63,357 bases of DNA from a virus (taxonomy: Duplodnaviria > Caudoviricetes): positions 1 to 63,357 of the IMG/VR virus record IMGVR_UViG_3300011116_000174; one strand, given 5' to 3'. Positions 15,581 to 56,643 of the stretch are shown one piece after another. Position 1 is the first letter of the stretch. Every line of letters begins with the position of its first letter. Both the position numbers and the translations under genes were made by a program. The notes beneath the pieces were generated by a model, which had not been told where the DNA came from, made no database searches, and saw nothing but the letters and a program-made list of their open reading frames with translations.

Positions 15581-16153
15581 ATGAACTACCCAAAAACACG
15601 TAAAGAAGCAAAAGAACTAGGGGCTACACACTACTACACAGGGCAACCTTGTTCTCGCGGGCATATAGCTTTGCGTAAAACCAAGGGTGTATGTATAGAG
15701 TGCATGAAAGAAGACTGGGTTAAGGACAACGCCAAACGCGGCTTTAAACCTAAGTCTGAAGCGGCAAAAGAAGCCGGGCGCAGGTATTACGAGCGAAATA
15801 GAGAAATGGTTAAGGCACGCGCGCTTGCTAGAACCCCAGAAGAAAAGAAAGCTTGGAAAAAAACGCATAAGCAACGGCACCCAGAATACTATAACGCACT
15901 AACTAGTTTAAGAAAACGTAGGCACAGAAACGCAACGCCGCCGTGGTTAACCGCAAAACAAAAAACCGAAATTAAACAGCTATATTTAATTGCAATTACT
16001 ATGTCTAATACCACGGGTCAAAGGTATGTAGTAGACCACATAGTTCCTTTACTTGGTAAAGATGTATGTGGACTTCACGTACCTTGGAATATGCAAGTTA
16101 TAACCCAAGAGGAAAACCTCAAAAAGTCAAACAAACTGCTTGCAACTACGTAA
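15581..16153 (+). CDS. HNH homing endonuclease
   Basis: YTGQPC..GH N-terminus; VDHIVPL..VCGLHVPWNMQVI..EN..KSN. Confidence 0.85.
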   Translation: MNYPKTRKEAKELGATHYYTGQPCSRGHIALRKTKGVCIECMKEDWVKDNAKRGFKPKSEAAKEAGRRYYERNREMVKARALARTPEEKKAWKKTHKQRHPEYYNALTSLRKRRHRNATPPWLTAKQKTEIKQLYLIAITMSNTTGQRYVVDHIVPLLGKDVCGLHVPWNMQVITQEENLKKSNKLLATT

Positions 16154-50864: not shown

Positions 50865-51182
50865 TCAAACCTTCTTTTTACGCTCTCTCTTACTTACTTC
50901 AGAAACTAAATTGCCTTGCGAATCTCTTTTAAAGGAACGATTCTTAGCCGGTGTGGTGATATACACACCATGTTTATTAGAACCACCCTTGTCTAATGCT
51001 TTTTTGTGGGCTACGTCTTTGCCCTCACGTGCGTCAGCTTTGCCGTTGCCATTTGCATCTTTACCGTTTTTATCAATAGCACGACGAGCACGTTGGCGCT
51101 CCATGCGGTTCTCGTGTTCGCCCCTTGCTTTTTGCAAGGCATATTCCCTTTTATAGGGTCTTGGTGATTTAGTGTATGGCAT
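50865..51182 (-). CDS. Small HNH-like protein
   Basis: GKDVAHKKAL.KGGSN...NRSF. Confidence 0.65.
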   Translation of the reverse strand: MPYTKSPRPYKREYALQKARGEHENRMERQRARRAIDKNGKDANGNGKADAREGKDVAHKKALDKGGSNKHGVYITTPAKNRSFKRDSQGNLVSEVSKRERKKKV

Positions 51183-51850
51183 TAGTGTTGTTTCCCATTA
51201 TGTTCGCAGTCGGTTACTGGACACCAACCCTTACAGGAAAAGTTTGGCTTTTTATTCCAAACGTTGCTCTCAATCGCTCCCTCTAAGCGCTTGGTATCTT
51301 CTAGCCACTTGCTCCAATACACCCCTTCGTTATCCTGCTCAAAGTTGGCTTTTATAAAGTCGTTGGCTACTACAAATAGTAACCCAGCTTTGACTTTTTT
51401 GACTTGCGGATAGTGCTTGAATACTGCCAAAGCAAGTAGTTCTAGCTGATCGGTTTCGGCAAATTTTGCCTTTCCGGTTTTATAATCAATAACATACGCA
51501 CGATCCTCTTGGATAATCAAAAGGTCAGCCACCCCGCGCCACCAAACATCCTTGGCAAAAAAGGTGCAGGGCTTCAAATCATAGGTCAGCCCTAACCGTT
51601 CTTCGCACAATTTCTCGCCGGGGATGTCTTTGAGTTTGTCGAGATGGTCTTGCATAAAGCTAAACTGCTCGGGGATTGGTGTGCCTTTTCCAATGTAGTT
51701 TTCGGCGGCTTTATGAACTTCATTACCATAGACCAAGTGTTCGCCAAGCGGTTCCGTAATATCTTTAACTACTTTTAGCCGATAGTATCGGTGCGGGCAC
51801 TGCTTAAATAAACTAAGCGACGAGTACGACCATGTATATTTGTTTGTCAT
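51182..51850 (-). CDS. PD-(D/E)XK (Cas4/RecB-like) exonuclease
   Basis: WSYSSL.LF.QCP, GNEVH, GVADL, IDYKTGK, QL.L.A, C..WCP...C. Confidence 0.85.
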   Translation of the reverse strand: MTNKYTWSYSSLSLFKQCPHRYYRLKVVKDITEPLGEHLVYGNEVHKAAENYIGKGTPIPEQFSFMQDHLDKLKDIPGEKLCEERLGLTYDLKPCTFFAKDVWWRGVADLLIIQEDRAYVIDYKTGKAKFAETDQLELLALAVFKHYPQVKKVKAGLLFVVANDFIKANFEQDNEGVYWSKWLEDTKRLEGAIESNVWNKKPNFSCKGWCPVTDCEHNGKQH

Positions 51851-51930
51851 TTGTTTTTCCAAAAGATTGCTGAAAGCACTCCAAGTATTGCTAAAAATAA
51901 TAGCGTTCCTAAAACTATGTAGTAGACCAT

Positions 51931-52233
51931 TTAGCACCTACTGTCGTCAAGCTTTTTCTTTTTCTTCTTGTATATTTTTTTAAGCATCTCTTCTCTATAT
52001 GCTTTAGCTTCGTCCGTAGCATACTCGTCAAGTTGCGCAATCTTTTTATATTCGTCAAATAACTTTTCGCAATACAGGTCAAGGGTATACTCGACCGCAA
52101 TTAGTTGATTTGCCATTTCGTCTTCTGTCATGACCTCGGGGTGATCCATATAGCGCCACAACAACGTCTGAATTTGTTGTTTGACTGTCCAAAGGTTATG
52201 TATGTGTGTTTCTAAATCTGTAATACTCTTCAT
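51931..52233 (-). CDS. Hypothetical protein
   Basis: Coupled ORF. Confidence 0.7.
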   Translation of the reverse strand: MKSITDLETHIHNLWTVKQQIQTLLWRYMDHPEVMTEDEMANQLIAVEYTLDLYCEKLFDEYKKIAQLDEYATDEAKAYREEMLKKIYKKKKKKLDDSRC

Positions 52234-52409: not shown

Positions 52410-52554
52410 TTTTCGCTAATACCGTTAATAGTCTAAGTTCTGCTAGTGTATTTAGTGCATGCTCCTCTGCTTCTTTGTATTCCTTATCTCTCATCGCCTC
52501 TTCGTATAATTTTAAATTTCGTTTTGCCTCTAGTAAAAAAGACGAGTATTCCAT
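52390..52554 (-). CDS. Small hypothetical protein (54 aa)
   Basis: Not in ORF track; MEYSSFLLEAKRNL..., TGATG overlap with the pol stop. Confidence 0.6.
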   Translation of the reverse strand: MEYSSFLLEAKRNLKLYEEAMRDKEYKEAEEHALNTLAELRLLTVLAKNAGQEK

Positions 52555-54395
52555 CAACAATCTCCGTAACTATATCCATAACTTGCTTCACAATTTAAAG
52601 GCAAAGTATCCGCCCACGTTGGTCTCCAACGCATACATTCCATCACGTATTGAAGGGCTTCCTCTTTCTCTTCTTCTTTTGCGATACAGGCAACGGCATC
52701 ATGCACCGTTAAAACTACCCTATATCGTTGGCTTATTTTAATCATTTGTTCAGCAATCACACAACGCGCCACTGCTTGACAAATGTTCTCAATTACTTTA
52801 CCGCCGTAAAGCTTTACCATACCGCGTCTTGTCGGGTATTCAAATTGGGTATTACCCTGAGGGTCTGTAACTTTATCAATACCTTCGTAGCGTTGCCATA
52901 ACCCACTGGGTAATAAAAACCCTGCTTTGTATGGGTCAAATCCAACTACATCAGGCACACCCAAAGAGCATGCTTGCTTAGATATTATGGCGTCTAAGCA
53001 TCTACCCGCTTGTTTCCATAGTTCGGGTATCTTTCCGTAAGTCGCCCGATAAATTTGTATAATGTGGCTCGCTTCATCTTCCGGTATATCGACTCCGAAT
53101 GTTTTAAGTTGGGCTTGGAACTTCTTACCGCCCATGCCGTATCCGGCGCCGAGAATCGTCGTTTTACCCACAAACCTCTCTGCCGTAGATATTTCTGAGA
53201 CATCCTTGCTATATATAGCAGATGCCATGATTTTGTATACGTCCTCGCCATTCTCAAATGCCTCCACCAAATCTGTTTGTCCTGCTAACCACGCAACCGT
53301 TCGCGCTTCAATCTGCGACGAGTCTGCATCAATAACCACATACCCTTCGGGGGCGCATATGGCTTTCTTTAATTTGTTTGCGTTTGCCCCGCGACTAGGT
53401 AAGTTTTGTAGATTAATTTTGTCATCACCGCCCCACCGCCCAGTGTGCGCCGCGTAATATTTAATCGGTACAGGTAACTTCCCACGCTTGGCTATATCAA
53501 TAAAGCGTTGTGTGCGCGTCTCTTCAAGCGTAGTCTTGTTGCCCAATCTTGCTTCGACCAAAGCCTGAACGCGAGGATCAGGATGTGATGCCAGTTGCTT
53601 GAACGCTTCGTCGGTCTTAGCAAATGCCCACGCTTCCTTGCCAGTGCGCGCACTGATCTTTGTAGGGGGGTCTACACCCAAAGACTTTAATATATCTGCA
53701 AACTTCTCGTTTGACATCAGCGTATCTTTGTCTGCCACGCACGCTAGTAGTAGGGCTTCCTTTTTGTTTTTAGTATCCTCTAAGTGTTGCTCAAGTAGTG
53801 GTAGGTTTAGTTCCAGTACCGGTTCAATAAACATCTTTAGAGTTGTGTCGATTACCTTGAGTTCTTTCATAGGAAAGCCACCACCAATCCCAGGCAACAT
53901 AAGTATGTTAAACAACGTGTATGTCAAATCCACATCGTTCCTACAATACTCACCATAGGCATCTATCTCTGACTGGGTAAAGTTGTTACGGCGTTTGCCC
54001 ATAGCATTTATCACTTCCGTGCCTTTTTCGCCGATGTTATAACGTTCAGCTAATACTTTAAGACTACCGCCCGCCTCAACACCATGGGTAGCACGAGCCA
54101 TACAAAGTGTATCGAGCCAACCCTTCGGTTTGATACCATAGCGCCAAGATAAAATAGCGCCATCAAACTGAGTGTTGTGCGCTAGGACTAGGCAGTTCTT
54201 CCAGTCATATAGTTTGGCAAAGCGGGACTCGGTCATGTGTTTGTTGTCATACCAAACAGTTTCGCCGTCGTCTTCTTTCACCGCTACACCGATAACCTCA
54301 AACCGATCATCGCGAATGTACTCCTCGGTCGTCAATCGCGACAAAGAATATTCTCTGTCGTAATACGTTTCAAAATCTACCGTTAATATTTTCAT
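52554..54395 (-). CDS. polA: Family A DNA polymerase with 3'-5' exonuclease
   Basis: DFET, AHN..FD, HTGRW, NLQNLP, DSSQIEAR, RFVGK...LG.GYG, TVHD. Confidence 0.92.
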   Translation of the reverse strand: MKILTVDFETYYDREYSLSRLTTEEYIRDDRFEVIGVAVKEDDGETVWYDNKHMTESRFAKLYDWKNCLVLAHNTQFDGAILSWRYGIKPKGWLDTLCMARATHGVEAGGSLKVLAERYNIGEKGTEVINAMGKRRNNFTQSEIDAYGEYCRNDVDLTYTLFNILMLPGIGGGFPMKELKVIDTTLKMFIEPVLELNLPLLEQHLEDTKNKKEALLLACVADKDTLMSNEKFADILKSLGVDPPTKISARTGKEAWAFAKTDEAFKQLASHPDPRVQALVEARLGNKTTLEETRTQRFIDIAKRGKLPVPIKYYAAHTGRWGGDDKINLQNLPSRGANANKLKKAICAPEGYVVIDADSSQIEARTVAWLAGQTDLVEAFENGEDVYKIMASAIYSKDVSEISTAERFVGKTTILGAGYGMGGKKFQAQLKTFGVDIPEDEASHIIQIYRATYGKIPELWKQAGRCLDAIISKQACSLGVPDVVGFDPYKAGFLLPSGLWQRYEGIDKVTDPQGNTQFEYPTRRGMVKLYGGKVIENICQAVARCVIAEQMIKISQRYRVVLTVHDAVACIAKEEEKEEALQYVMECMRWRPTWADTLPLNCEASYGYSYGDC

Positions 54396-54625
54396 TTGTC
54401 TAACATGTCATCAACAAGGCACTGAGACAATACTTGTGCCAATCCAACCCTATGCGACTTGCGCTCCTCTTGTTCGTCAGTCGTGTAAATAAAAAGAGAG
54501 TCATCTTTGTGCATAGCGATTCCAACAAAGCTAACTATCTCACCATTTTCAAATTCTTTCAATAGGGTTTTCAATGATGAATAAACATCTTCTCGTTTTC
54601 TATTAATTGATACTATATTTGCCAT
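54392..54625 (-). CDS. Hypothetical protein (77 aa)
   Basis: MANIVSIN after AAGGAG, immediately downstream of the array. Confidence 0.7.
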   Translation of the reverse strand: MANIVSINRKREDVYSSLKTLLKEFENGEIVSFVGIAMHKDDSLFIYTTDEQEERKSHRVGLAQVLSQCLVDDMLDK

Positions 54626-54638
54626 TTCTTTTCTCCTT

Positions 54639-55297
54639 GATATCCTCACCCGACCACACCTAGACTCGCATCACCGCACCGTTCCATACCTTACCGAAAA
54701 ATCCATACCATGCCTTACATGACCTTCGCCATACAGCGCCTAGCCGAGCCACGAACTCCTTGCCATAACTCACCCCGCCGTATCGTACCGAACCGAGCCA
54801 TGCCCGAGCGCGAACTCCTTGCCTGACTGAATCCCGCCACTCCTAGCTATAACATGCCGAACCTAGAACTCCGTGTCTTACCAAACTTCGCCGTGCCCGA
54901 CCATGCCGAGCCGTACCGCGCTAGAACCACGATACCCAAACCTTGCCGATCCCAACTTCACCGCACCACACCTCGCCCCGCCTAGTGGGAACCGCAATAC
55001 CCTTGCCAAACCGGGCACGAACTGAACTCACCATGCCCAACCCTGAACTCCTCACTACACCGCACCTTACCCAACCATGCCTCTACTAACCATGAATCCC
55101 TTACCTCACCAGTACAAACCTCGCACCGCCCGACCCGACCTAACCGCATCGCGCATCACCAAAAAATCCATACCGAACCTTTCCTCACCCGACCAGACCC
55201 CGCCGTAGCTAGTCAAGAAGCCCAAGCCTTGCCCTGCCGGATCGGGACAGACCGATCCATGCCGGGACGCGCCATACACTACCGGAGCCTGATGCCC
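54639..55297 (-). ncRNA. Array of 11 putative guide RNAs: (GGY-NN)n pentamer tracts separated by 7-nt GGRNWUY linkers
   Basis: 5-nt periodicity NN-RCC on the + strand; 12 linkers; begins 3 nt after the stop codon of the RAMP-like gene. Confidence 0.85.
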
Positions 55298-55300
55298 TAG

Positions 55301-55912
55301 TTATGCTACTTTTTTGAGTGGCATTTTTACCGCTGCGAACTTTTTAACTTCATAGCGACCATGACGTGGTCTCCAATCGCCGATGCCAACGTAAGAACCC
55401 GCGTCTTCAACCCAACGCTTTAACTGCGCTTCGTTTGCTACGTCTGAGTTAATAGATACTTTGAACTTAGCAGTCCAGTCTTTGAAGTGCGGACGAGTGC
55501 GCATAACCTTTGCCATACCAACACGCACCGCAACACAGATACGATGGTCTTCGCTCTCAACCAACTGATCGACAGTCATTGTTCCGCCTTCGTATGTAAA
55601 CGTAGCATCGGTATCTACAAACATACCTGATAATGCCAATTTACCTTCCTTGCTTTTCTTAGCGCCTTCGACAAGCACCGACTCAAGCACACGACTTGGG
55701 ACAATTACTTCGTTCTTTTTGTTTAGGTATAACCCTGCACGATACTCGATGTTTGCCATAGCTTCATAGTCTGTATCGGTTTTCTTGCGCTTGCTACTAA
55801 TTTCTTTCATAGCTTTGCTAAACGGATTAAGCGGGTCTGCCGTTTGTCCGTTGTGCATAATCAATGAATCACCGCTTAATTCAACTTCATATTGTGTGTA
55901 GCCTTTTGGCAT
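55301..55912 (-). CDS. Cas7/RAMP-like RNA-binding protein (putative guide-RNA filament subunit)
   Basis: N-terminal strand + LIMHN; IVPSRVLESVL..GA helix; RTRPHF..W; C-terminal Gly-rich loop AGSYVGIGDWRPRHGRY; GAGGAG RBS. Confidence 0.75.
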   Translation of the reverse strand: MPKGYTQYEVELSGDSLIMHNGQTADPLNPFSKAMKEISSKRKKTDTDYEAMANIEYRAGLYLNKKNEVIVPSRVLESVLVEGAKKSKEGKLALSGMFVDTDATFTYEGGTMTVDQLVESEDHRICVAVRVGMAKVMRTRPHFKDWTAKFKVSINSDVANEAQLKRWVEDAGSYVGIGDWRPRHGRYEVKKFAAVKMPLKKVA

Positions 55913-55934
55913 GTTACTCTCCTCTTTATTTAAA

Positions 55935-56351
55935 TTATGGACGTCGTGATCGTTTGATCTCTTTCGTCCGCACAGTTTTAGGAACTTTTACCTTCCTCTT
56001 TTTTGGCTTGGAAGATTGTTTTGGTTTAATCTCCCTAGTCAAAACCTTTCGCAACGTCTGATCGCCAAGCGCCCGACGTCTACTTCTAATTGATTCCGTA
56101 ATCCCATCATGACAAGACTCGCATAACATAATCACGTCGTTGATAGTTTCCTCACCCCATGTGTCGTAGTGTCGATGATGTAACTCCATAGCGTATTCTT
56201 CGCTTGACCGCCAACATGTTCCGCACTGATACATTTGTTGTAGCGCTTTTAGGTTACGCAACTGAAACCAATGATCGGGATTTGGGTGGGACTTCGCGGG
56301 ACGTAGGACTTTATGTCCGTCGATCTCCCTAACTCTTTTCAATTGAGTCAT
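55935..56351 (-). CDS. HNH endonuclease with basic C-terminal tail
   Basis: CGTC...ELHHRHY..WGEE...LCESCH. Confidence 0.8.
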   Translation of the reverse strand: MTQLKRVREIDGHKVLRPAKSHPNPDHWFQLRNLKALQQMYQCGTCWRSSEEYAMELHHRHYDTWGEETINDVIMLCESCHDGITESIRSRRRALGDQTLRKVLTREIKPKQSSKPKKRKVKVPKTVRTKEIKRSRRP

Positions 56352-56643
56352 ACTTTAGCCTTCCAAATACTGTTGTACTGCCCAAACTTAACTTTTGGGT
56401 ATGTCTTGCTCTTTTAAGTGCTTCATCAAAAGGGTCATCCTCTTCTGCATGTAACAACTCTTTCATAACATCTCTAGTAAATTCGTCCGCCACTAACTTG
56501 CGTGCTTCATCGGTAAGTGGTTTTAGTTCGTTAGGAATGTATTCGTTATATTCAGCCAAAAGCGGAACCCACCTACCGCCCTTCATAAACTCCTCGGGGT
56601 GTGTCTTGATACGCTCGAGCAATAACCGGACGCCCTCGTTCAT
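56329..56643 (-). CDS. Hypothetical protein
   Basis: LLERIKTHPEEF; coupled. Confidence 0.7.
   Translation of the reverse strand: MNEGVRLLLERIKTHPEEFMKGGRWVPLLAEYNEYIPNELKPLTDEARKLVADEFTRDVMKELLHAEEDDPFDEALKRARHTQKLSLGSTTVFGRLKYDSIEKS

Follow-up and report, generated by a model that had tools for sequence, protein, structure and literature searches.

The 63,357-nt stretch of DNA analyzed here (hereafter, the window) holds what is very probably a phage-borne VIPR system, made up of a vap-like HNH nuclease gene, a vipr gene and an array of 11 guides, within the replication module of a complete 63-kb phage (Table 1). VIPR (Viral Interference Programmable Repeat) was first described in 2026 as a CRISPR-related, RNA-guided DNA-recognition system that combines a RAMP protein, Vipr, with vrRNAs of alternating GGY and NN (bioRxiv 10.64898/2026.04.26.720920). 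It is already the subject of four 2026 preprints, and the present locus is a further member of this known system: a clean natural example from uncultured freshwater phages and no new kind of system. What it offers is a concrete target pair, guide 11 set against the DNA polymerase site of rivals and of the phage itself, and a reciprocal linkage count that establishes a small HNH nuclease as the constant companion of Vipr across a large phage branch. What guide 11 is predicted to target is a gene essential for replication in related phages; earlier reports concerned satellite or prophage regulators.

Table 1. Features of the locus, in positions of the window.
Feature	Position	Strand	Basis or remark
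HNH nuclease gene, 138 aa, vap-like accessory of vipr	55935..56351	minus	Pfam HNH, E 1.2e-5
vipr gene, 203 aa, minimal Cas7-like RAMP	55301..55912	minus	PDB 36pp_D, phrog_4652, AF2, Foldseek
vrRNA array, 11 tail-less guide blocks	54644..55297	minus	Segmentation into YNNGG units
vr1	55291-55222	minus	
vr2	55217-55168	minus	
vr3	55163-55099	minus	
vr4	55094-55050	minus	
vr5	55045-55001	minus	
vr6	54996-54936	minus	
vr7	54931-54871	minus	
vr8	54866-54817	minus	
vr9	54812-54758	minus	
vr10	54753-54703	minus	
vr11, 11 units, 22 read positions	54698-54644	minus	Matches related phages' DNA polymerase gene
Last junction (ATAT) and ribosome-binding site (AAGGAG)	54626..54643	minus	Leads into a small gene, then the polymerase gene
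Phage's own vr11 site, codons 19-29 of DNA polymerase gene 52554-54395	54310..54341	minus	17/22 match

A preliminary description of this DNA had placed an HNH gene, a 203-aa gene and periodic non-coding DNA side by side on the minus strand, and all three lie where it put them. The periodic stretch, given there as 659 nt, is present, but the array proper spans 654 nt and stops at 54644; the rest is a junction and a ribosome-binding site serving a small gene that probably starts with the ATG at 54625 on the minus strand. The start of the HNH gene overlaps the end of an upstream ORF (56329-56643), and the G-rich stretch opens 3 nt past the vipr stop codon. A promoter and terminator scan returned weak consensus matches only and no terminator on the minus strand, so that no terminator-like site separates the array from the small gene and the polymerase gene. 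Cas1 and Cas2 are absent among the 65 ORFs searched (61 of them in PADLOC, which gave only a Cas4-like fold in the phage exonuclease), and the window holds no CRISPR-like direct-repeat family. The locus thus has neither the repeat-spacer array nor the cas1/cas2 adaptation genes of CRISPR-Cas, as the preliminary description had maintained; the name VIPR, which it had given for phage RAMP genes with GGY/NN arrays, is also correct. Megablast of the locus against named phages gave no match. Beyond the probable source, 13 runs of 9 other studies contain it (share 0.67-0.84 of sampled words). Of the named relatives, the more distant Medea1, MakoManhole and LittleE have another gene after vipr.

Sequence and predicted structure make the 203-aa protein a homologue of Vipr, folded like Cas7. 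It matches PDB 36pp_D, the 'SUSP1 Vipr protein', with an E-value of 7.7e-30 over query residues 17-190 and phrog_4652 with an E-value of 6.6e-51, and is 33.5% identical to Felixounavirus-type copies; PADLOC and NCBIfam profiles gave no match to it. Its AlphaFold (AF2) model (pLDDT 91.2) retrieved Cas7-family RAMPs in Foldseek (Cmr4, Csm3 and type VII Cas7) at probability 1.00, with E-values from 1.7e-5 and a TM-score of about 0.5, which bears out the RAMP/Cas7 identity proposed earlier. The Gly-rich loop on which that proposal drew is also present (G-I-G-D-W-R-P-R-H-G-R-Y), although at residues 176-187 it lies near the end of the protein and is not its terminus. Residues H20, R140, D179, W180 and R181 align with SUSP1 H17, R138, D177, W178 and R179, which are described as holding G1 and G2 of GGY (bioRxiv 10.64898/2026.04.26.720927); among 31 homologues, four of them never vary and W180 is kept in at least 90%. 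The Y-pocket residues of SUSP1, E71 and M72, correspond here to R74 and V75, with no conservation. The cryo-EM account in the same preprint has one protomer per GGY/NN unit and a gapped target code, agreeing with the earlier suggestion that each protomer holds GGY and presents the variable NN. The Vipr described here should polymerise on guide RNA with one protomer per YNNGG unit.

The array has a strong 5-nt period: the autocorrelation of G falls from 0.40 at lag 5 to 0.32 at lag 10 and 0.24 at lag 15, and is below zero at lags 2-3. The array contains 85 YNNGG motifs, against 47.7 +/- 5.7 in 1000 base-preserving shuffles (maximum 66), and windows of 100 nt with at least 7 in-phase units occur solely at 54608-55307 on the minus strand, with none on the plus strand. 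Among the 116 phased units, GG is found in 86 (74%) and Y in 109 (94%), and all 16 NN dinucleotides are used. The units fall into blocks of 9-14, set apart by a 4-nt spacer within GG-RNWT-Y at which the phase shifts by one (junction statistics are drawn from 16 arrays); eight of the 11 blocks are exact multiples of 5 nt long and three carry one extra base. The guide is therefore such a block and not the single unit, as had been thought, whereas the idea of a gapped target code is upheld. An Rfam search of the array found no family, and its predicted folding is no better than that of shuffles (z -1.55).

Adjacent pentamer arrays, which the preliminary description had suggested looking for in homologues, are a regular feature of this family. 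Across 80 homologous vipr loci, 15 of them from close relatives, same-strand arrays lie at most 1.5 kb from vipr in 75, with antisense calls in 5, and the units number 4354 sense vs 55 antisense. Phages with 100% identical Vipr differ by whole guide blocks, relatives keeping the frame and swapping the blocks; vr11 occurs in this phage alone among 15 related arrays, and no array of relatives L002-L016 holds it at 90% or better. Three metatranscriptome runs from two studies yielded short contigs over parts of the array and vipr, for which DNA carry-over is possible; these RNA-library runs gave no contig over the 5' part of the polymerase region (53800-54655), which one run that is probably DNA does cover. 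Contigs of two studies end at 54869, inside junction 7, where strain variation in guide cassettes would also break contigs.

Judged from gene neighborhoods, the HNH family is a dedicated neighbor of vipr. In all 14 of the close loci that extend far enough, the HNH gene immediately precedes vipr; conversely, a Vipr ORF lies just downstream of HNH in 76 of the best 80 loci found with an HNH profile. Wider Vipr loci have HNH in 36 of 70 cases, and the linkage spans Vipr identities from 100% to about 40% and differing genome contexts. The protein has the layout CxxC...HH...D...CxxCH followed by a Lys/Arg-rich C-terminal tail, and C43, C46, E56, H58, H59, Y62, D72, C77, C80 and H81, catalytic residues and zinc ligands included, are invariant in 11 HNH orthologues. 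DNA cutting is its predicted activity. It matches an IscB HNH-domain profile (PADLOC/NCBIfam) below threshold, with an E-value of 5e-4. A Foldseek search of its model gave nothing at an E-value of 0.001 or better; the best, weak structural matches of its core are the 'HNH Cascade' entries PDB 8zlu, 8yha and 9siu (E 0.018-0.2), too weak for us to claim kinship. An HNH accessory, which the preliminary description had read from the present sequence, has precedent, HNH domains being already listed among Vap proteins in the fig. S21 legend of the discovery preprint (bioRxiv 10.64898/2026.04.26.720920). We also considered a tie between HNH and tail-less arrays, as in RNA processing, and rejected it as unsupported: among 74 HNH-type loci the median inter-block gap is short (4-19 nt) in 31 and longer (33-96 nt) in 43, and gaps are likewise mixed in 25 loci without HNH.

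In the DNA scanned, one guide of the 11, vr11, has a target by the published rule of a 1-nt skip (bioRxiv 10.64898/2026.04.26.720920), with the wobble base skipped and no self-target. Read in this way, its sequence corresponds in frame to codons 19-29 of the family-A DNA polymerase gene in related phages, the skipped base being the codon wobble position, at which the sites carry mixed bases. The match reaches 21 of 22 read positions in one related phage (G002, at 43827) and again in 13 other polymerase genes, and no 22/22 target was seen in the DNA scanned. Across 87 polymerase genes, the score at the homologous site is 21 in 14, 20 in 21, 19 in 14, 18 in 11, 17 in 22, 16 in 4 and 14 in 1; because all of these matches fall at a single homologous, protein-conserved site, they count as one event. 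None of 1200 shuffled guides scored 20 or more, and skips of 0 and 2 gave no match of at least 90% for any of the 79 guides of the family. The target code is indeed gapped, as expected earlier, but the published gap is one base and not three, and only the 1-nt skip yields a target here.

The phage's own site is the top self match, yet shuffled guides score as high in the window (null mean 15.4, maximum 17) and the match falls under the published line of 80% (bioRxiv 10.64898/2026.04.26.720920); no self match of any guide exceeds this null in the window. The own vr11 site differs at only 5 read positions. Compared with the sibling phage L002, 6 of 44 polymerase differences fall inside the 32-nt vr11 site (P 7.5e-5 gene-wide). 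Since 17 of the 44 cluster within the first 130 nt, a recombination patch explains the excess as well as selection does.

Targets were sought in DNA retrieved by homology: besides the window itself, this comprised 15 related contigs in full and some 240 loci. The related phage DNA scanned amounted to 1.6 Mb. In this related DNA, vr1-vr10 gave nothing above controls, at full length or in any 8-unit sub-window. Of 204 guides from wider relatives, none had a target at skip 1 or at skip 2, and two had one at skip 0. Guides of HNH-type loci had targets in 4 of 114 at skip 1, two of them borderline (18/20), and in none at skip 0 or skip 2. The first guide of one of these loci, L261, matches rival terminase genes in frame at 25/26 and 24/26, and its own terminase at 20/26.

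The explanation we favor, and regard as probable, is a VIPR system that works against rival phages. The operon would be transcribed through the array, as we infer from the lack of a terminator-like site, and cleavage of the transcript in or close to the 4-nt RNWT junctions would release RNAs of roughly 50-70 nt. Each RNA would be coated by Vipr protomers, hiding GGY and presenting NN, and the filament would bind the dsDNA of a co-infecting or resident rival that bears the site. The HNH protein might then be recruited and cut the rival DNA; at a minimum, the bound filament would block transcription, as for phage SUSP1. Competing relatives would thereby lose the use of their replication gene, and the phage's own would be spared. 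A bolder reading, less likely than not but a serious possibility, generalizes this: VIPRs linked to HNH would be RNA-guided DNA nucleases of natural origin, reading a gapped code shaped by codons, with which lytic phages cut essential genes of close competitors (polymerase here, terminase in L261) while the owner's copy is recoded at a few read positions.

It is unlikely, although less so than the alternatives taken up below, that the locus silences as in SUSP1 and that HNH is otherwise employed and not guided, whether in junction cutting of the transcript, in homing or as a general nuclease. Silencing is what the published work describes: the SUSP1 system represses transcription without a nuclease, and the VIPRs reported there as tested all act by transcriptional repression (bioRxiv 10.64898/2026.04.26.720920). 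HNH homing endonucleases often occur in phage replication modules, but a homing gene would not stay joined to vipr across the range of Vipr identities and contexts given above. An array with neither tails nor ribozymes calls for some processing activity, which HNH could supply; tail-less spacing does not, however, track with the presence of HNH.

Guided cutting of rivals has also to be set against readings in which the polymerase match, or the locus itself, means less. That vr11 tunes the phage's own polymerase gene, 250 nt downstream, or resembles a conserved motif by chance, we regard as improbable. The guide adjoins the polymerase gene and finds its best self match there, and all its matches sit at one conserved site; yet that self match reaches only what shuffled guides reach and rivals score up to 21/22, and disturbing the NN pairing abolished silencing in the published system (bioRxiv 10.64898/2026.04.26.720920). 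None of the 1200 shuffles reached 20, and L261 has the same split between own and rival copies at another gene. Still less credible, to the point of being very improbable, is the idea that the locus has decayed or gone inactive, leaving periodic DNA and a RAMP gene devoid of present function. A lack of GG in 26% of units and the 1-nt insertion in three blocks would fit decay, but the discovery preprint describes internal degeneracy of vrRNAs as frequent (bioRxiv 10.64898/2026.04.26.720920), both ORFs are intact with invariant key residues, the locus is kept in the other studies, and the array turns over by whole blocks while Vipr stays identical.

If HNH is guided, this branch would cut DNA beyond silencing, which bears on the origin of nuclease-armed RNA-guided immunity, and could give a very small programmable nuclease. 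Were the cutting of rivals true, a guide and its mismatched own target would be inherited together, making strains of one phage mutually exclusive within a cell.

Among known systems, the locus is closest in several respects to VIPR type II of Escherichia phage SUSP1 and a Pseudomonas fulva prophage (bioRxiv 10.64898/2026.04.26.720920, 10.64898/2026.04.26.720927, 10.64898/2026.10.15.759431). The two have homologous Vipr proteins with conserved GG-binding residues, YNNGG guides (9-16 units) and a 1-nt-skip target on codon positions 1 and 2, and both are phage-borne, aimed at competing elements and free of self-targeting. They differ in that Vipr identity is only about 33%, and the accessory gene is an HNH upstream of vipr in place of the DNA-binding vap1. 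Guide blocks abut here through a 4-nt junction and do not each carry a structured 3' tail of roughly 40 nt, so that both the tail and the vap1 that mark type II are missing from this locus. The target, too, is a replication gene of related phages and not a satellite or prophage regulator. With its conserved accessory gene for a predicted nuclease, the locus resembles the nuclease/helicase-Vap VIPR types III-V and the 'staggered' vrRNA arrays (figs S18, S21 and S22 of the discovery preprint), where HNH is listed among the Vaps. The nuclease-bearing types are, in the passages of that preprint that concern them, enriched in host defense islands and active against viruses (bioRxiv 10.64898/2026.04.26.720920), whereas the present locus sits in a phage replication module. 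Type I-E and I-F 'HNH Cascade' offers an analogy only, a Cas7-type RNA-guided backbone with HNH in place of Cas3; there, HNH forms a fusion with Cas5 or Cas8 and the guide runs without gaps, whereas here a separate 138-aa HNH accompanies a gapped code. With class 1 Cas7 proteins (Csm3, Cmr4 and type VII Cas7), Vipr shares the RRM core, thumb and G-rich loop, but at 8-15% identity, apart from any cas1, cas2 or repeat-spacer array, and with a period of 5 nt where theirs is 6 nt.

The minus-strand HNH gene, the 203-aa gene and the G-rich array together form a genuine, intact VIPR system, and this kind of system is already known. The preliminary description had given the name VIPR and its mechanism, and both are correct according to the accessible portions of the discovery preprint (10.64898/2026.04.26.720920) and the linked preprints on structure (10.64898/2026.04.26.720927) and satellite competition (10.64898/2026.10.15.759431); VIPR arrays have also been recovered by a language model (10.64898/2026.10.21.760802, accessible in part). 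As those portions describe it, Vipr is a ~20 kDa protein with one protomer per unit of vrRNAs that comprise 9–16 YNNGG units, and the system recognizes double-stranded DNA without a PAM, each NN pairing and one target base, usually the codon wobble, being skipped. Seven types and six vap accessory genes are distinguished, types III–V encoding predicted nucleases or helicases (10.64898/2026.04.26.720920, 10.64898/2026.04.26.720927, 10.64898/2026.10.15.759431).

The virus record is complete (63,357 bp, CheckV 100%) and belongs to an uncultured phage whose closest named relatives are distant (terminase 50–60% identical to those of aquatic phages, polymerase 35%). By PHROG matches, which include no integrase, the plus strand encodes terminase, portal, head and tail genes, and the minus strand carries a replication module of primase/helicase, SNF2 helicase, exonuclease and family-A DNA polymerase. 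On that strand a ribosome-binding site comes after the array and leads into a small gene, then the DNA polymerase gene. The small gene has no family match, and tblastn found it in none of 16 related loci, including the siblings L002 and L003, whose Vipr proteins are 100% identical to that of the window. Many freshwater and aquatic metagenome runs, drawn from several studies, contain the locus almost in full. Elsewhere in the window, an endonuclease VII-like gene may be a free-standing nuclease insertion, and the phage exonuclease bears a Cas4-like PD-(D/E)XK signature (PADLOC, E 3.3e-9 to 5.7e-6); the latter is a common phage recombination nuclease and does not speak for CRISPR adaptation genes.

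Coordinates of the VIPR locus and of other genes mentioned in the text
Feature	Position	Strand	Remarks
HNH gene	55935-56351	-	within replication module
vipr gene, 203 aa	55301-55912	-	within replication module
G-rich array	starts 3 nt past vipr stop, down to 54644	-	within replication module
Small gene, 77 aa	54392-54625	-	between array and polymerase gene; ATG at 54625, AAGGAG ribosome-binding site
Phage exonuclease	51182-51937	-	
Endonuclease VII-like gene	15581-16153	+	directly after major head protein gene
Tandem paralogous gene, ~830 aa	24585-27071	+	virion-structural/tail-fibre PHROGs phrog_19943, phrog_24898
Tandem paralogous gene, ~830 aa	27071-29608	+	same PHROGs as its paralogue

No Pfam, NCBIfam or PADLOC family covers the 203-aa protein, which falls in phrog_4652, of unknown function (E 6.6e-51). 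Its sequence matches one solved structure, 36pp chain D, 'SUSP1 Vipr protein' (E 7.7e-30, residues 17–190), and tblastn detects homologues (~33–39% identity) in 131 records of named phages, the Felixounavirus group among them. The RAMP/Cas7 fold that had been proposed for it is borne out by structure prediction: a model built on 31 homologues (pLDDT 91.2) matches the Cas7-family RAMPs Cmr4, Csm3 and type VII Cas7 in Foldseek with probability 1.00 (E from 1.7e-5, TM ~0.5), in a library that predates any VIPR entry. In SUSP1, according to the accessible text of the structure preprint, H17, D177, R138 and W178 touch the two guanines and R179 touches the pyrimidine (10.64898/2026.04.26.720927). 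In a HMMER alignment these correspond to H20, D179, R140, W180 and R181; W180 is conserved to at least 90% across 31 sequences and the other four do not vary. The same text places pyrimidine-pocket residues E71 and M72 on helix 1 (10.64898/2026.04.26.720927); they align to R74 and V75, so these pocket residues are not conserved.

The 5-nt periodic array described beside the HNH and 203-aa genes on the minus strand is upheld by autocorrelation of G (0.40, 0.32 and 0.24 at lags 5, 10 and 15) and by 85 occurrences of YNNGG, compared with 47.7 ± 5.7 in shuffles; a scan of both strands found no comparable run elsewhere in the window. A pyrimidine comes first in 109 of the 116 phased units and GG comes last in 86; all 16 NN dinucleotides are present. 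Phase-tracking segmentation followed by cuts at the motif GG-RNWT-Y resolves the array into 11 blocks (vr1–vr11) of 45–70 nt, or 9–14 units, each; the guide is such a block, and not the single unit as first supposed. In eight of the 11 blocks the length is an exact multiple of 5 nt, and the other three have one extra base; because neighboring blocks are separated by a 4-nt spacer, each is shifted in phase by one base relative to the preceding one. Across 149 junctions in 16 related arrays the consensus is R (88%), T (68%), W (83%), T (87%), with GTTT, GTAT and ATTT the commonest; block lengths in these arrays have maxima at 50 and 65 nt, with multiples of 5 accounting for 91 of 133. No long conserved tail was found in the window's array, an Rfam search of it gave no match (for example, no hammerhead), and its folding does not exceed that of shuffles (z −1.55). 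Read-through transcription of the array is plausible, since the interval from vipr to the polymerase gene shows no terminator-like site. Short pieces of the array and of vipr occur in metatranscriptome data (three runs, two studies), although as assembled contigs these cannot prove transcription or RNA ends.

Pentamer arrays accompany the homologues, as had been anticipated. Among 80 viral loci with Vipr homologues (100% down to 34% identity, 15 of them close relatives), YNNGG arrays lie within 1.5 kb of vipr and on its strand in 75, compared with opposite-strand calls in only five (4354 vs 55 units). The guides themselves turn over. L002 and L003 share vr2 and vr5–vr10 with the window and lack vr1, vr4 and vr11, with vr3 at 89% in L003 and 52% in L002; vr1 reappears in the homologous loci L006 and L009, and vr4 and vr11 are absent from all 15 arrays compared. 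Cassette swaps are likewise visible in metagenome contigs: metagenome and metatranscriptome contigs bridge 54645-54731 and 54869-54989 with 25 and 54 other letters instead, so natural variants hold a different guide block there. Two complete 65-kb relatives have the same polymerase family; G006 (the contig of locus L032) lacks Vipr, and the only Vipr-like ORF of G007 (G007:10692-11114) is distant (25% identity, E 2.9e-6).

The HNH protein has the pattern CxxC...HH...D...CxxCH, with C43, C46, E56, H58, H59, Y62, D72, C77, C80 and H81 invariant in 11 orthologues; its N-terminal segment is specific to the family, and its tail is rich in Lys and Arg. Its model is confident only in the core (blocks 81–94, mean 69.8), and structure comparison gives weak top matches: Cas5-HNH Cascade (E 0.018), Cap5 and T4 endonuclease VII. 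Linkage is the firmest evidence: the gene lies directly upstream of vipr in all 14 close loci that extend upstream, and loci L011–L015 keep it there despite otherwise unrelated neighbors. Conversely, a profile search of viral contigs yielded 211 HNH relatives, and among the best 80 (identity down to 26%) a same-strand Vipr ORF lies just downstream in 76. The HNH therefore serves one large VIPR branch as its dedicated accessory, and we rejected its reading as a passing homing gene. This HNH lies within 400 nt in 36 of 70 wider Vipr loci, and the named distant relatives Medea1, MakoManhole and LittleE have another gene after vipr instead. Nor is the partner unprecedented: HNH domains are already among the Vap proteins in the accessible text of the discovery preprint (10.64898/2026.04.26.720920). 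We infer that the guide directs the HNH protein to the target and that the protein cleaves DNA.

Target patterns were built from coordinates by joining the NN of each unit with 0, 1 or 2 wildcards (the skip). Within the window, no guide scored above its own shuffled null, a result also published for other VIPRs. Across 265 kb of related contigs, vr11 matched 21/22 at G002:43827, in a related phage contig, at skip 1 only, where ~2e-4 such matches are expected by our own arithmetic; the site covers DNA polymerase codons 19–29, the NN bases falling on the first two positions of each codon and the skip on the wobble. The proposed gapped target code thus stands as to the gap, whose size must be corrected to one target base, by the published rule and the skip-1-only match of vr11. 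Of 79 family guides, 0, 1 and 0 matched at 90% or better at skips 0, 1 and 2, respectively. After 80 more polymerase loci were added, vr11 reached at least 19/22 in 50 of 96 sequences, and the other window guides gave at most three 15/18 matches (skip 2) in the same 96 under any skip rule; shuffled vr11 scored at least 20 in 0 of 1200 cases in the same 1.63 Mb. For the other ten guides, 12 large related contigs, two of them complete genomes, yielded no target, nor did any other locus. In 87 polymerase genes (89 examined, two without the anchor motif), the homologous site scored 21 in 14, 20 in 21, 19 in 14, 18 in 11, 17 in 22, 16 in four and 14 in one, with mixed wobble bases at the skipped positions.

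The window's own polymerase site matches vr11 at 17/22 (77%), under the preprint's 80% line, and that of L002, whose Vipr and HNH are identical and which lacks vr11, at 20/22. Of the 44 nt that distinguish the two polymerase genes, 6 lie inside the 32-nt vr11 site; 17 of the 44, however, fall within the first 130 nt, which makes a recombined patch as good an account of the difference as selection. An independent second case of a rival-gene match comes from the viral locus L261. Of 114 guides from HNH-type loci, four matched at 90% or more at skip 1, whereas skip 0 and skip 2 gave no match. The first guide of L261 (L261:2847) matches 25/26 at L283:1548, in frame in the terminase large-subunit gene of a related phage, and 24/26, also in frame, in those of L274 and L276; the terminase copy of L261 itself matches at 20/26, again 77%.

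In these two natural cases, an essential gene of rival relatives is spelled by a guide whose owner has a copy just under the match threshold, and they offer a ready-made site pair for testing whether the HNH makes this VIPR branch a guided nuclease. Also worth keeping are the reciprocal HNH–vipr linkage and the junction grammar of the tail-less array. Such an array fits the 'staggered' arrays of the discovery preprint, in which, as its accessible text has it, one vrRNA's end is the next one's start (10.64898/2026.04.26.720920, fig. S18 legend). Type II VIPR guides are tailed, whereas the window's blocks are joined by 4-nt junctions; the tailed architecture of L017:536-1500, a Vipr relative at 42% identity whose guides are set apart by conserved ~30-nt spacers, is likewise unlike them.
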